Below are positions 40,693 through 45,967 of a stretch of 64,000 nucleotides of DNA, in pieces. The stretch lies in the sequence record NC_054908.1; one strand, 5' to 3'. Source of the DNA: Escherichia phage vB_EcoM_DalCa. The notes below the pieces were generated by a model, which worked only from the letters and a program-made list of their open reading frames with translations, had not been told where the DNA came from and ran no database searches. Every line of letters starts with the position of its first letter. Position 1 is the stretch's first letter. Both the position numbers and the translations under genes were made by a program.

Positions 40693-40716
40693 GGGACCTT
40701 TCGGTCCCTTTTTATT
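40693..40716 (+). terminator. bidirectional intrinsic terminator between convergent genes 24 and rnlB
   Basis: GGGACC-TTTC-GGTCCC with T-run on plus strand and A/T-rich run on minus. Confidence 0.65.
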
Positions 40717-40871
40717 TAACTTACCAATTCAATCCAAGCCGGACGAAGTACATCTTGTACCATTTTAACTAATTCCTTTTTAATCAAAGAAGGATTATCT
40801 GCTTGAGTTAGAGTAATACCTTCACGAGAAGTTTCTTCCAAAATATCTTGAACAGTTAGTCCCATCACCTT
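40716..40871 (-). pseudogene. rnlB: rnlB C-terminal domain remnant (51 codons in frame downstream of internal TGA)
   Basis: frame continues KVMGLTVQDILEETSREGITLTQADNPSLIKKELVKMVQDVLRPAWIELVS to TAA at 40718-40716. Confidence 0.6.
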
Positions 40872-41720
40872 TCAAAAATCCTTCGGACCAATTTCACCAA
40901 TTTTAGAAATAACGTTATTTACTCGGTTCAGTGTAACGTAGCAAGCTAAAATTCCCACCAATTTGTTATCAGCTTCTGATAGTTCAACTTTAGCTTTAAT
41001 AGGCTTATCAGACTTTTTCTTTTCACTAAATTTGGAATTCTTGCATTTGATGGCTACACGATTTCCATTATGAAGCCAAGAAGGACAACAAGGTTTCAAT
41101 ACATATCCTTCAGCGGTAAATACTTCGCCTTTGGCTTCAGCTTTCCAAACACATTTGTTAGCGTCAACTAATCCTGCATGGTCTACTGTAAAATTATAAT
41201 CTTGGACGACAGAATCTAAATCATTTGGCAATTTAATAAGCTCTTCAAATTTACCGCGACCTAAAAGTGGAGCCATTTTAAATTTAAATGTATTACAAAA
41301 TGATTCCATCATATAATCATCGACATAAGTCACATCACCACTTTCTGTAGTGACAATAATGTCAAATACATAAAAATCTTTATCGCCATAATCGACATTC
41401 TTCTGAATGCCAGGTCCAGCGAATTCGCCAAAGACTTGATAAGATACAACCGCTGAGGTTTCCATAATATCTTGTACTGCTTTAATAGAATCTTCGTAAT
41501 TCTTTAGAATAATTTCATACCCAAAGAAATCTTCAGCAGGAAGAATTGGTCCAGTACGTTTAGCGCAAGTTACTTTATCACGCTCAATAATCAATGAGAA
41601 ATTTGTGCCGTGAATCTTTTCACGAGCTACCCACTCCCCACCAGTCAATCCCAAGCTATAAAGTTTTTCAATAAATTTAGAGTTGTAATGATTTTCAAGA
41701 CTGCTATACTTTTTAAACAT
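40872..41720 (-). CDS. rnlB: RNA ligase 2 (Rnl2) nucleotidyltransferase portion, truncated at codon 283 by in-frame TGA
   Basis: N-terminus [12 protein letters not shown] and KIHGTN adenylyltransferase motif; 282 codons + TGA + 51 codons = 334, the T4 Rnl2 length. Confidence 0.8.
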
Positions 41721-41729
41721 AATTAATCC

Positions 41730-42008
41730 TCAAAATGTAATTTCTAACCAATCACCATCACGCTGATCACTATTGACTTTAAAGCTGAATCCTTCTTTTC
41801 TCAGCCAATCACCAATTTCTTCAGTAATCAATTTATCACGAGCAATACAATAATAACTAAAATGTGTTTTACCTTGTTCAGCTGCTTTATTAGCAAGTTC
41901 CGAAAAATCTTTAATAAAACATTCTAGTTTAAACTGTTTACTTTTAAGTGCTTTTTCTCGCAATTGATTAGCAAAAGATTCATTTTCATAAAGATCATAC
42001 TGTTCCAT
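41730..42008 (-). CDS. 24.2: hypothetical protein (gene 24.2 position)
   Basis: 92-aa ORF; synteny between rnlB and hoc. Confidence 0.6.
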   Translation of the reverse strand: MEQYDLYENESFANQLREKALKSKQFKLECFIKDFSELANKAAEQGKTHFSYYCIARDKLITEEIGDWLRKEGFSFKVNSDQRDGDWLEITF

Positions 42009-42210
42009 TTTTCACCTTTTTATTGATATGTCTTTTTCTATAGACGACTTTTTCTCGAGTTTCAAATTTATTCTTAGCAGTCATAGCTCGAGCCCATAAT
42101 ACAGCCACTTCTTTTGCCTGTAAGTTTAATTCACGAGCAATTTCAATGAATGACTTTCCAGACTCATGAAGCGTAAACACCACAACCTCAGTTCTCATAA
42201 TTAATCTCAT
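41995..42210 (-). CDS. 24.3: small basic protein with helix-turn-helix-like segment (gene 24.3 position)
   Basis: 71-aa ORF; segment SGKSFIEIARELNLQAKEV; synteny. Confidence 0.55.
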   Translation of the reverse strand: MRLIMRTEVVVFTLHESGKSFIEIARELNLQAKEVAVLWARAMTAKNKFETREKVVYRKRHINKKVKNGTV

Positions 42211-42299
42211 GTTATCGAGTTGGTGCCATTATATACATCATTTTCTGATTGTGTTTTGCGTGCTTTCAAAATGAAGAAAGGGGCCGAAGCCCCTTATGA

Positions 42300-43715
42300 T
42301 TATGGATAGGTATAGATGATACCAGTTTCTAAAGCAGTTTTATGAATGATGTATCCATTACGCGATTCTTGGACATCAACTTCTGGATAGTCTTTAATCA
42401 TCTTCTGAAGAGTGTAACGATGCAGGTAGTATTTACTATCTGGGTCGTCAGTTTTCCAATCTTTACCTTCTTCGGTCATTTTTTGGATTTCATCCATAAC
42501 CCACCAACCGCACCAGATATAAGCTGAAGTACGATGTGGAAGAGGATGAACATAAGGTAGTTCACCTTCTGGTTCAATTGGAGTCCGTTCAGCAATAACA
42601 ACTTCAGCTGTTGAACTAATTGTCTTTGAAGTGTAATTATCTTTAGTTAATACTGCTTCAACTTTAATTGTATGAGTACCCGCTGAGGAGGTATCAATAC
42701 TATAAGTATTAGTAGAATTACTTTCTGCTACGTTGTCTTTCTTCCAAGAGTACACAATATTAGTATCACCAGGAGCACCAGTAACAGATGCTGTTAAAGT
42801 TGCAGTTCCACCAACAGTAGTATTAACTGATGGCGGAGATAAAGAAATGGTGGCACTATTAAATGTCGCATTATTAGTTACTACTGTTGCTTCTGCTGAA
42901 ATTTCTTTTGTAACATAATTTGTTGCAGAAACAGATGCGGTGCATTTAAGAGTTTTACTTCCGACTTCGGTCGGAGTGAATTTATACGTAGCAGAAGTTG
43001 CATCCGGAATATTACTGTCATCCATTGACCATTGGAATGTTATAGTAGCACCTGAAGGTGCACTAGAGACATTTGCAGTTAAAGTAATAGGAACACCAAA
43101 GACTGTAGTCGGAGACTCGGGTGTAATTTTTAGCGTCGAAGAATTAGCCTTTTTATTTACAGTCAAAGAAACCGCTGATGATTCTACTGTTTTATCAACG
43201 TAATCAGTTGCAGTCACTGTGACAGAGCAAGTTATAGACTTAGTTCCTTCAGTTGTTGGTGTATATTCAAAGGTTGATTGCTTTTGACCGTCAACATCGA
43301 CCCCGTCAACTTTCCATGTATAATCAATAGCAGCACCAATAGGTTGATTGCTTACATTAGCAGTGAATGTTGTTGCTGTTCCAATTTCTACTGCCGCAGG
43401 AGAAGCCGGAGTAACAGTGATAGTGGAATTATTTTCTTTCTTATTAACAGTGATAGTTGTTGATGCTTCAGCTATTTCCGGATCTCCTGCGGAAAGTGTA
43501 TTAGTTGCAACCACTTTAATTTTTTTTGTTCCTGCTGGAGAAGCAAGAGTATAATCCATTGTAGCAGCCGTAGAGCCCTGTGTTATATCATCTACAGTCC
43601 AGACGTATGTAATAGTACCGTCTGGGGTTTCACCTGCAGGTGTAGCAGTGAATGTTTGTGAACCTCCAATAACCCCTGTAGGAGTTAGAGGAGATAACGT
43701 GACAGTGAATGCCAT
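42300..43715 (-). CDS. hoc: Hoc highly immunogenic outer capsid protein, four Ig-like repeats plus capsid-binding domain
   Basis: 471 aa; four ~90-aa Thr/Ser/Val-rich beta-sandwich-like repeats then conserved C-terminal domain (ELPYVHPLPHR, WCGWWVMDEIQK). Confidence 0.8.
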   Translation of the reverse strand: MAFTVTLSPLTPTGVIGGSQTFTATPAGETPDGTITYVWTVDDITQGSTAATMDYTLASPAGTKKIKVVATNTLSAGDPEIAEASTTITVNKKENNSTITVTPASPAAVEIGTATTFTANVSNQPIGAAIDYTWKVDGVDVDGQKQSTFEYTPTTEGTKSITCSVTVTATDYVDKTVESSAVSLTVNKKANSSTLKITPESPTTVFGVPITLTANVSSAPSGATITFQWSMDDSNIPDATSATYKFTPTEVGSKTLKCTASVSATNYVTKEISAEATVVTNNATFNSATISLSPPSVNTTVGGTATLTASVTGAPGDTNIVYSWKKDNVAESNSTNTYSIDTSSAGTHTIKVEAVLTKDNYTSKTISSTAEVVIAERTPIEPEGELPYVHPLPHRTSAYIWCGWWVMDEIQKMTEEGKDWKTDDPDSKYYLHRYTLQKMIKDYPEVDVQESRNGYIIHKTALETGIIYTYP

Positions 43716-43724
43716 AAGTTATCC

Positions 43725-44405
43725 TTATTTTAATGTTATGAAAGAAGAATTACGAGTTTCGCGAATTAGAACTGATCCATCGCGATTAATATAATAAATT
43801 AAGCTAAATAATGTTTGGTGTGCTGACGCATGTTCAAAACTAGTTGGGTGAGATTTCCAATCCGGAGTTTCAGCAATCCATTGATAAATCCACCAAGGAA
43901 CAGTGCAGAATCCTGGATTTTTTCCAATCAGTTGAAGATTCGGACTAAAGTTTTCCGGAAGAGTAAATACAGACGGCTTTTCAGATTCAATAATCTCAGC
44001 TACAGCTTGTTCAAACTTTTCTTCAACAAACGGAGTGTCTTCAATCAAAACTGAGGTATTTTCAGGAATTTTATCCGTTTCTACTACTTCAATTTTAATG
44101 TCAGATTTAACCGGAGAATCAATCAAAAGTGCTGCTTCTGGATTGACTTCTTCATCGTCATATTTTAATCCCTCTGCGGCATCAGCAGCATCAATTAAGT
44201 CTTTAATAGATAACCCATCAGTCTCCGGCATAGGTTCACTAGCGAGCTTCTGGAGGGCTTCTTCAATATCAACAACGATATTATCAAAAGATTTATTCTT
44301 TTTGACCTTTATACCAAACTGTTCAGCATATTCAGCTAATTTAGCTTTAGCTTCTTTGTTATCATCAAGAGCCTTCAGCTCTGCAATATAATCTTTATCT
44401 ATCAT
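43725..44405 (-). CDS. inh: Inh-like protein (inhibitor of prohead protease)
   Basis: 226-aa acidic protein in the T4 inh position. Confidence 0.65.
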   Translation of the reverse strand: MIDKDYIAELKALDDNKEAKAKLAEYAEQFGIKVKKNKSFDNIVVDIEEALQKLASEPMPETDGLSIKDLIDAADAAEGLKYDDEEVNPEAALLIDSPVKSDIKIEVVETDKIPENTSVLIEDTPFVEEKFEQAVAEIIESEKPSVFTLPENFSPNLQLIGKNPGFCTVPWWIYQWIAETPDWKSHPTSFEHASAHQTLFSLIYYINRDGSVLIRETRNSSFITLK

Positions 44406-44418
44406 AATATTTCCTCAG

Positions 44419-44426
44419 TATAAATA
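44419..44426 (+). promoter_or_regulatory. late promoter TATAAATA (uvsW)
   Basis: exact TATAAATA 30 nt upstream of ATG 44456. Confidence 0.55.
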
Positions 44427-44455
44427 TAGATATATTTATTACATGGTATTTAGAC

Positions 44456-45967
44456 ATGACTGACATTAAAGTACATTTTTATGATTTTAGTCACGTGAGA
44501 ATTGATTGTGAAGAAAGTACATTTCATGAACTCCGTGATTTCTTTAGCTTTGAAGCTGATGGGTATCGTTTTAATCCGAAGTACAGATATGGCCACTGGG
44601 ATGGACGAATCCGTCTGTTAGATTATAATCGTCTTCTTCCATTCGGCTTAGTCGGGCAAATTAAAAAGTTCTGCGATAACTTTGGCTATAAAGCCTGGAT
44701 TGACCCACAGATTAACGAAAAAGAAGAATTATCAAGAAAAGATTTTGATGAATGGCTTTCTAAATTAGAAATCTATTCAGGAAATAAAAGAATTGAACCA
44801 CATTGGTATCAAAAAGATGCAGTGTTCGAAGGATTAGTTAATCGTCGTAGAATTCTTAATCTTCCAACATCCGCAGGTAAATCTTTAATTCAAGCTCTGC
44901 TTGCTCGGTATTATTTGGAAAATTATGAAGGCAAAATTCTTATTATTGTTCCAACAACTGCTCTGACAACTCAGATGGCTGATGACTTTGTTGACTATCG
45001 TTTATTCAGTCATGCAATGATAAAGAAAATCGGTGGTGGAGCATCAAAAGATGATAAATATAAAAATGATGCACCAGTCGTTGTTGGTACATGGCAAACT
45101 GTAGTAAAACAACCGAAAGAATGGTTCTCACAGTTTGGAATGATGATGAATGATGAATGCCATCTTGCTACAGGAAAAAGTATTTCATCTATCATATCAG
45201 GTTTAAATAACTGCATGTTCAAATTTGGTCTATCTGGTTCATTACGTGATGGCAAAGCCAATATCATGCAGTATGTTGGAATGTTTGGTGAAATATTTAA
45301 GCCAGTAACGACTTCTAAGTTAATGGAAGATGGACAAGTAACTGAGCTAAAAATTAATAGTATTTTTCTTCGCTATCCCGATGAGTTCACTACTAAATTA
45401 AAGGGAAAAACTTATCAAGAAGAAATAAAAATTATTACGGGGCTTAGTAAAAGAAATAAATGGATCGCTAAATTGGCTATTAAGCTTGCACAAAAAGATG
45501 AAAACGCTTTTGTCATGTTTAAACATGTATCACATGGTAAAGCTATTTTCGATTTAATTAAAAATGAATACGATAAAGTTTATTACGTATCAGGGGAAGT
45601 TGATACCGAAACCCGCAACGTAATGAAAACCTTAGCTGAAAATGGTAAAGGAATAATTATAGTAGCTAGTTATGGTGTATTTTCTACTGGTATTTCAGTT
45701 AAAAATCTGCATCACGTTGTTTTAGCGCACGGTGTTAAATCAAAAATCATTGTATTACAAACAATCGGTCGTGTATTACGTAAGCATGGTTCTAAAACAA
45801 TCGCAACAGTCTGGGACCTCATAGATGACTGTGGTGTCAAGCCAAAATCTGCTAATACTAAAAAGAAATATGTTCACTTGAACTATCTTTTAAAACACGG
45901 CATTGATCGTATTCAGCGCTACGCAGATGAAAAATTTAATTACGTAATGAAAACAGTTAATTTATAA
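44456..45967 (+). CDS. uvsW: UvsW ATP-dependent DNA helicase
   Basis: 503 aa; SF2 helicase motifs (Walker A PTSAGKS, DExH-like MMNDECH). Confidence 0.9.
   Translation: MTDIKVHFYDFSHVRIDCEESTFHELRDFFSFEADGYRFNPKYRYGHWDGRIRLLDYNRLLPFGLVGQIKKFCDNFGYKAWIDPQINEKEELSRKDFDEWLSKLEIYSGNKRIEPHWYQKDAVFEGLVNRRRILNLPTSAGKSLIQALLARYYLENYEGKILIIVPTTALTTQMADDFVDYRLFSHAMIKKIGGGASKDDKYKNDAPVVVGTWQTVVKQPKEWFSQFGMMMNDECHLATGKSISSIISGLNNCMFKFGLSGSLRDGKANIMQYVGMFGEIFKPVTTSKLMEDGQVTELKINSIFLRYPDEFTTKLKGKTYQEEIKIITGLSKRNKWIAKLAIKLAQKDENAFVMFKHVSHGKAIFDLIKNEYDKVYYVSGEVDTETRNVMKTLAENGKGIIIVASYGVFSTGISVKNLHHVVLAHGVKSKIIVLQTIGRVLRKHGSKTIATVWDLIDDCGVKPKSANTKKKYVHLNYLLKHGIDRIQRYADEKFNYVMKTVNL

Follow-up and report, generated by a model that had tools for sequence, protein, structure and literature searches.

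An RB69-type hoc allele with four predicted Ig-like domains in the T4-like backbone of Escherichia phage vB_EcoM_DalCa

Introduction

In phages T4 and RB49, Hoc (highly immunogenic outer capsid protein) binds as a monomer, through its C-terminal domain, in the middle of each gp23* hexamer, and its Ig-like domains form an outward-reaching, acidic and flexible fibre with weak adherence to the glycans of mucus and bacterial surfaces (PMC10385173, PMC9958956, PMC7602432). Published work on T4 and RB49 gives 155 Hoc sites on a head of T4 size. The negative charge of the fibre helps virion dispersal (PMC10385173, PMC9958956, PMC7602432), and adherence to bacterial surfaces or mucin glycans has been reported for both phages (literature cited in PMC10385173 and PMC9958956). 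In nanoparticle and vaccine work with T4, Hoc serves as the principal scaffold for display, and it has been proposed to act in mucus adherence.

Variation in the number of Hoc Ig-like domains has already been published. Among 650 homologues, Fokine et al. 2023 (PMC10385173, section 3.6) described Ig strings of one domain (PG7) to ten (Muldoon). The same paper defined a conserved ESRNG motif in the capsid-binding domain. A pI of about 4.2-5.2 is reported for Hoc homologues, and the supplement of that paper gives 4.72 for RB69 Hoc and 4.74 for T4 Hoc. T4 Hoc has three Ig-like domains in 376 aa (PMC10385173), as a first, sequence-only reading of the DNA studied here had correctly stated.

Here we analyse the hoc locus of Escherichia phage vB_EcoM_DalCa (record NC_054908.1) in a stretch of 64,000 nucleotides, referred to below as the window. 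With a probability of roughly 90%, we read 42300..43715 as hoc, in the form of an RB69-type allele that encodes four Ig-like domains and a capsid-binding domain, carried by a Tequatrovirus close to Paracelsus.

Results

Identification of the gene and its neighbours

The predicted protein (50.1 kDa, pI 4.72) matched PHROG 1149, 'Hoc-like head decoration', with E=1e-135, and PHROG 21694, which covers the C-terminal domain, over its last 65 residues (aa 407-471; E=1e-41). T4 Hoc (5vf3_Z) was the sole strong match among PDB sequences, with E=6e-141 in two collinear blocks. The motif ESRNG (Glu-Ser-Arg-Asn-Gly) was present at aa 450-454. A C-terminal domain homologous to T4 Hoc residues ~286-376 and with this motif, an N-terminal string of Ig-like domains, an acidic pI, and a position between inh and 24.3/24.2/rnlB were thus all found together. 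The PHROG 1149 and T4 Hoc matches and the T4 gene order bear out the initial identification of the gene as hoc.

On the 3' side, hoc is followed on the same strand by two short ORFs, which resemble 24.3 and 24.2, and by the gene for RNA ligase 2. On the 5' side lie inh, at 43725..44405, and uvsW, at 44456..45967 on the opposite strand. When the ORF map was compared with the annotations of T4, RB69, and Paracelsus, the order rnlB-24.2-24.3-hoc-inh-uvsW was that of T4. The features of hoc itself are collected in Table 1.

Table 1. Features of the hoc locus and of the encoded protein, with positions in the window
Feature	Position	Strand	Remarks
hoc coding sequence	42300..43715	-	471 aa; ATG start; TAA stop at 42300-42302
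Shine-Dalgarno AAGGA	43722..43726	-	6 nt 5' of the hoc ATG; shares bases with the inh stop codon; read directly from the sequence
Intrinsic-terminator-like hairpin AAGGGGC-TTCG-GCCCCTT with T-rich run	42278..42295	-	4 nt past the hoc stop; -12.6 kcal/mol
Ig-like domain 1	43437..43715	-	aa 1-93; counterpart T4 Hoc domain 1, 61% identity
Ig-like domain 2	43149..43436	-	aa 94-189; counterpart T4 Hoc domain 2, 55%; Pfam PKD at aa 100-174
Ig-like domain 3	42870..43148	-	aa 190-282; extra, T4 counterpart absent; best match 39% (domain-2-type)
Ig-like domain 4	42576..42869	-	aa 283-380; counterpart T4 Hoc domain 3, 45%; Pfam Ig_3 and I-set at aa 290-360
C-terminal capsid-binding domain	42303..42575	-	aa 381-471; contains ESRNG; nucleotides 97.1% identical to T4
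RB69-like (Mosigvirus-type) DNA patch, about 1.25 kb	42550..43800		about 96% identical to RB69; borders approximate

No exact copy of the late-promoter motif TATAAATA was found on the minus strand from hoc to uvsW, including the region 5' of inh, and the hoc promoter was not located. In the window as a whole this T4 motif occurs 23 times against 9.8 expected, a count that none of 100 shuffles reached, and one copy, at 44419-44426 on the plus strand, lies just 5' of uvsW. The gap between inh and uvsW is 50 bp (44406-44455); the T4 record has at this position a 618-nt homing endonuclease gene, which we take to be segD and which is absent from the window, Paracelsus, and RB69.

In the rnlB gene (40716-41720, minus strand), codon 283 (40872-40874) is TGA, in frame, in place of the GGA (Gly) of Paracelsus and T4. 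The 334-aa protein is thereby cut into an ORF of 282 aa and a remnant of 50 aa. The annotation of the closest deposited sequence (Pinarejo, 99.7%) gives a full-length gene, and the TGA is due either to a sequencing error or to a genuine nonsense mutation, the gene being non-essential.

Four Ig-like domains precede a conserved C-terminal domain

Domain borders were set by cutting at conserved linkers, which gave four repeats of 93, 96, 93, and 98 aa followed by a C-terminal domain of 91 aa. All six pairs of repeats had Smith-Waterman scores 10-25 standard deviations above composition-preserving shuffles, with none of 500 shuffles reaching the observed score. Comparison of the Ig repeats with the C-terminal 91 aa gave z values of 0.1-2.9, none clearly beyond chance (domain 3 was highest, with 8 of 500 shuffles reaching its score). 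A strand motif recurs in register every 94-95 residues, as TFTATPAG at aa 21, TFTANVSN at 116, TLTANVSS at 211, and TLTASVTG at 306, and the Ig part consists of 20% Thr, 11% Ser, 10.5% Ala, and 9.5% Val. These results agree with the sequence-only reading, which had described a 471-aa ORF with four successive, Thr/Ser/Val-rich repeats of about 90 residues, each with a TATPAG/TANVS-like pattern, before a conserved capsid-binding C terminus. That C terminus differs from the T4 domain at 3 of 91 residues.

Three Pfam families scored above their curated cut-offs (Ig_3, 34.9 bits against 30; PKD, 30.3 against 23.5; I-set, 29.2 against 23.7). AlphaFold2, run with an alignment of 30 sequences, predicted four all-beta domains of seven strands each, with pLDDT of about 88-96 up to residue 375. 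The best Foldseek matches to this model were four-Ig strings, namely Dscam1 Ig1-4 and ICAM-5 D1-D4, and the RB49 Hoc structure 3SHS was matched with E=8.5e-11. For the C-terminal domain the model was unreliable (pLDDT 31-55), probably for want of variation in the alignment there, and the capsid-binding role of this domain is assigned from sequence identity to T4.

Alignment by HMMER paired residues 1-190 of the query with residues 1-190 of T4 Hoc, and residues 289-471 with 194-376 (8e-85), with about 98 extra residues in between. The comparison with T4 Hoc and the structure prediction, both proposed as checks when the repeats were first noticed, therefore gave four Ig-like domains and an additional third one. 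They support the correspondence of domains 1, 2, and 4 to domains 1, 2, and 3 of T4 Hoc, with domain 3 as the addition.

Origin of the third domain and of the Ig array

In principle, the protein could have three Ig-like domains, with the extra stretch of about 95 residues serving as a disordered spacer or non-Ig linker, the outcome by which the sequence-only reading would have been refuted. The sole weak point through which this reading might enter is the Pfam result over aa 200-261, where PKD_3 (26.3 bits, at its cut-off), PKD_4, and Big_3_5 are each marginal when taken alone. However, the alignment of domain 3 with domain 2 had the highest score of all inter-domain pairs (z=24.7), and domain 3 was modelled as a seven-strand sandwich with pLDDT above 90 both within the full protein and alone. 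As far as computation can tell, these two results rule out a spacer, which we consider almost certainly the wrong reading, and the models support domain 3 as a true Ig-like beta-sandwich. A fourth domain made by recent tandem duplication of domain 2 in the window lineage, as in the 472-aa Hocs of the RB27/JoYop type, is suggested by close relatives whose 472-aa and 568-aa Hocs contain two or three copies of domain 2, each sharing 81-88% identity with that of T4. Domain 3, by contrast, shares no more than 39% identity with any sister domain (39% with domain 2 of the window protein and with T4 domain 2), and so falls short of the more than 80% identity to a T4-type domain 2 that marks the extra domain of the RB27 type. 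In addition, Tandem Repeats Finder detected no DNA-level repeat in hoc, and the same diverged domain 3 is found in RB69 and other Mosigvirus phages. On these grounds recent duplication was rejected as very unlikely. Since domain 3 is most like domain-2-type domains, it may plausibly descend from a much older duplication of domain 2. A tblastn search found domain 3 at 95% identity or more in only 29 of 50,697 phage records and no intermediates at 60-95% identity in the same records; the other 879 matching records were below 60%, with none above 48.5% among the matches listed. By these sequence comparisons, domain 3 is old and diverged rather than a recent duplicate.

The DNA that encodes the Ig array differs in affinity from its surroundings. 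In sliding segments of 100 nt, the patch listed in Table 1 was 94-99% identical to RB69 and 19-77% identical to T4, and the flanks (42000-42500 and 43800-44400) were 92-100% identical to T4 (mostly 98-100%) and 48-98% identical to RB69. The patch borders are approximate because they were placed where the window, T4, and RB69 are all similar. Among the neighbouring genes, the identity of inh is 97% with T4 and 74% with RB69; for gene 24.3 the corresponding values are 93.5% and 62%, and uvsW matches RB69 at 78%. The identity switches abruptly at both borders, as it might in an assembly chimera or a contaminated sequence, but nine independently deposited genomes, isolates from Switzerland, Germany, and the USA among them, share this hoc together with T4-like flanks, at 98.5-100% identity over 3 kb. 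Because nine independent genomes have the same junctions, an artefact was rejected as exceedingly improbable. Nucleotide identity shows the Ig array to be RB69-like DNA within a T4-like (Tequatrovirus) backbone, and this mosaic patch points to recombination between Tequatrovirus and Mosigvirus in which the cassette was exchanged. Most likely, then, the RB69-type allele reached the window lineage, or left it, by homologous recombination between the two genera.

The points of change-over fall in the nucleotide-conserved region that encodes the C-terminal domain and at the 3' end of inh. Among T4, RB69, and the window, identity in the former region is 94.6-97.1%, synonymous sites included, against 62-78% between the window and RB69 in the adjacent genes. 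Its conservation may reflect either homogenisation by recombination or selection or constraint on the DNA.

Hybrid hoc genes were also observed in the RB69-like backbones of two metagenomic, Mosigvirus-like contigs, L005 (1501-3204) and L006 (1501-2631). The L005 gene encodes five domains, with T4-type D1-D2 followed by RB69-type D2-D4, and the L006 gene encodes three, with RB69-type D1-D2 followed by a T4-type last Ig-like domain. In L006, RB69-like DNA ends at hoc nt 567 (aa 189/190) and resumes at nt 856 (aa 285/286), which are exact domain borders. The presence of T4-type domains in hoc genes with a Mosigvirus backbone implies a pool that both genera share, so transfer in either direction is possible. 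As judged from these gene sequences, exchange is bidirectional and respects domain borders. A further contig of 3.3 kb encodes a 379-aa Hoc (P0004) in which the first nine residues, MAFTVDITP, are joined straight to a D2-type domain, with RB69-type D3-D4 behind it. This protein appears to lack domain 1 by loss, and it has a two-residue GI insertion near its C terminus.

A known allele in a variable family

In a tblastn search of 50,697 phage records, Hoc proteins 100% identical to that of the window were found in Escherichia phages Paracelsus, vB_Eco_F26, and HEMP5 and in Yersinia phage PYps35T. Five further records matched at 99.6-99.8% and 18 at 95-99%, the latter including RB69 Hoc. Records with a Hoc at least 99% identical are Tequatrovirus, and those checked at about 96% are Mosigvirus. 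Because identical proteins have already been deposited for several phages, the window Hoc is not new; it is the known RB69-type long form, real but ordinary.

Among the 120 closest protein clusters at 90% identity, three-domain proteins were the most frequent (80 clusters, 375-379 aa), followed by four-domain (31 clusters, 468-472 aa) and five-domain proteins (9 clusters, 567-570 aa). The best 150 of 1.84 billion representatives at 50% identity included 57 with the Hoc C-terminal domain. Approximate Ig counts for these 57 were one domain in 5, two in 14, three in 14, four in 4, five in 3, and six or more in 14.

Some records require caution. In MZ501066 (FriedrichMiescher), PQ480333 (NRG-P0074), and OQ067374 (a20), hoc is annotated in two parts or was matched piecewise, which suggests that the gene is frameshifted or interrupted in some isolates and would be consistent with a dispensable Hoc. 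A 32-kb record labelled 'Staphylococcus phage SAJK-IND' (MG010123) contains a T4-type Hoc, and two Hoc clusters bear the names 'endonuclease [Shigella sonnei]' (P0022) and 'endonuclease [Bacillus cereus]' (P0115). All three are probably mislabelled or contaminated entries.

Discussion

As a discovery, this gene carries little weight, given that the protein is already annotated as Hoc in several phages and that the RB69 architecture is contained in AY303349. Our literature searches, with Sathaliyawala 2010 and Fokine 2011 outside their scope, found neither an explicit account of RB69 Hoc as a four-Ig protein nor one of Tequatrovirus and Mosigvirus exchanging hoc cassettes. Such inter-genus exchange is the sole part of this analysis that is perhaps worth more computation, and the domain-level mosaics are a clear case of modular evolution between the two genera.

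Since its C-terminal domain is nearly identical to that of T4, we infer that the window Hoc binds the capsid; by the same sequence comparison, it would occupy the centres of gp23* hexamers of the mature head as a monomer and be dispensable for growth. By analogy with T4, the fourth domain may add an estimated 40-45 A to a fibre of about 180 A, for a total of roughly 220-230 A, and it may add one further potential binding surface. A change in binding, which the sequence-only reading suggested along with a longer fibre, would be a possible consequence. A natural four-domain variant on a predicted T4-type capsid site offers a comparison for the effects of fibre length and domain content on adherence, dispersal, and immunogenicity, and the allele is carried by Paracelsus (Bas36) of the BASEL collection.

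The comparisons establish the exchange events themselves. A broader proposal is that the hoc Ig array constitutes an exchangeable cassette system across T4-like genera, in which diversification is selected and mechanistically favoured and domain 3 has a ligand specificity of its own. The conserved linkers would be the sites at which whole domains are swapped, added, or lost in phase, and two anchors with unusually high nucleotide conservation, the region encoding the C-terminal domain and the 3' end of inh, may serve the exchange of complete arrays. The window would then be one product of a standing process that quickly varies the adhesive and antigenic surface of the capsid. We put this proposal forward tentatively and consider it, as a whole, rather unlikely.

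Comparison with described Hoc proteins

Among the closest known forms is RB69 Hoc (AAP76093.1; Mosigvirus RB69, AY303349), which, like the window protein, has 471 aa with four Ig-like domains and the C-terminal domain. The two proteins align over their full length without gaps, with 17 substitutions (96.4% amino-acid identity), and the DNA of the Ig array is 96.1% identical. Domains 1-4 of the window protein are 98, 94, 95, and 98% identical to those of RB69, so that every Ig-like domain, domain 3 included, reaches at least the 94% by which we recognise an RB69-type allele. The flanking genes of RB69, in contrast, are only 62-78% identical to those of the window and thus belong to the backbone of a different genus.

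Paracelsus (Bas36, QXV83046.1), PYps35T, F26, and HEMP5 have the same hoc as the window in the same Tequatrovirus context, and Paracelsus and HEMP5 are 100% identical to it over the 3-kb locus. Over 11 kb, the window and Paracelsus are 98.7% identical and differ in the rnlB nonsense codon of the window. T4 Hoc (376 aa; PDB 5VF3, 8T1X, and others) is encoded at the same locus, and its first, second, and last Ig-like domains are collinear with those of the window, but it has no counterpart of domain 3 and the shared Ig-like domains are much less similar than those of RB69 (Table 1). Much further away, the N-terminal fragment of RB49 Hoc (3SHS) and the Hoc of Serratia phage Muldoon (1174 aa, 10 Ig) share 15-19% identity with the window protein and have other domain numbers.

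The Hocs of the common 472-aa form (RB27, JoYop, and G10400) and the five-domain Hocs of 568-570 aa resemble the window protein in having more than three Ig-like domains and the same C-terminal domain, and likewise come from Tequatrovirus. Unlike the diverged domain 3, however, the additional domains of these proteins repeat T4-type domain 2 in tandem (81-88% identical to it), and their overall identity to the window protein is about 55-60%. Two routes have thus led to four Ig-like domains, one through tandem copies of domain 2 (RB27 type) and the other, to which the window belongs, through a diverged domain 3 (RB69 type).
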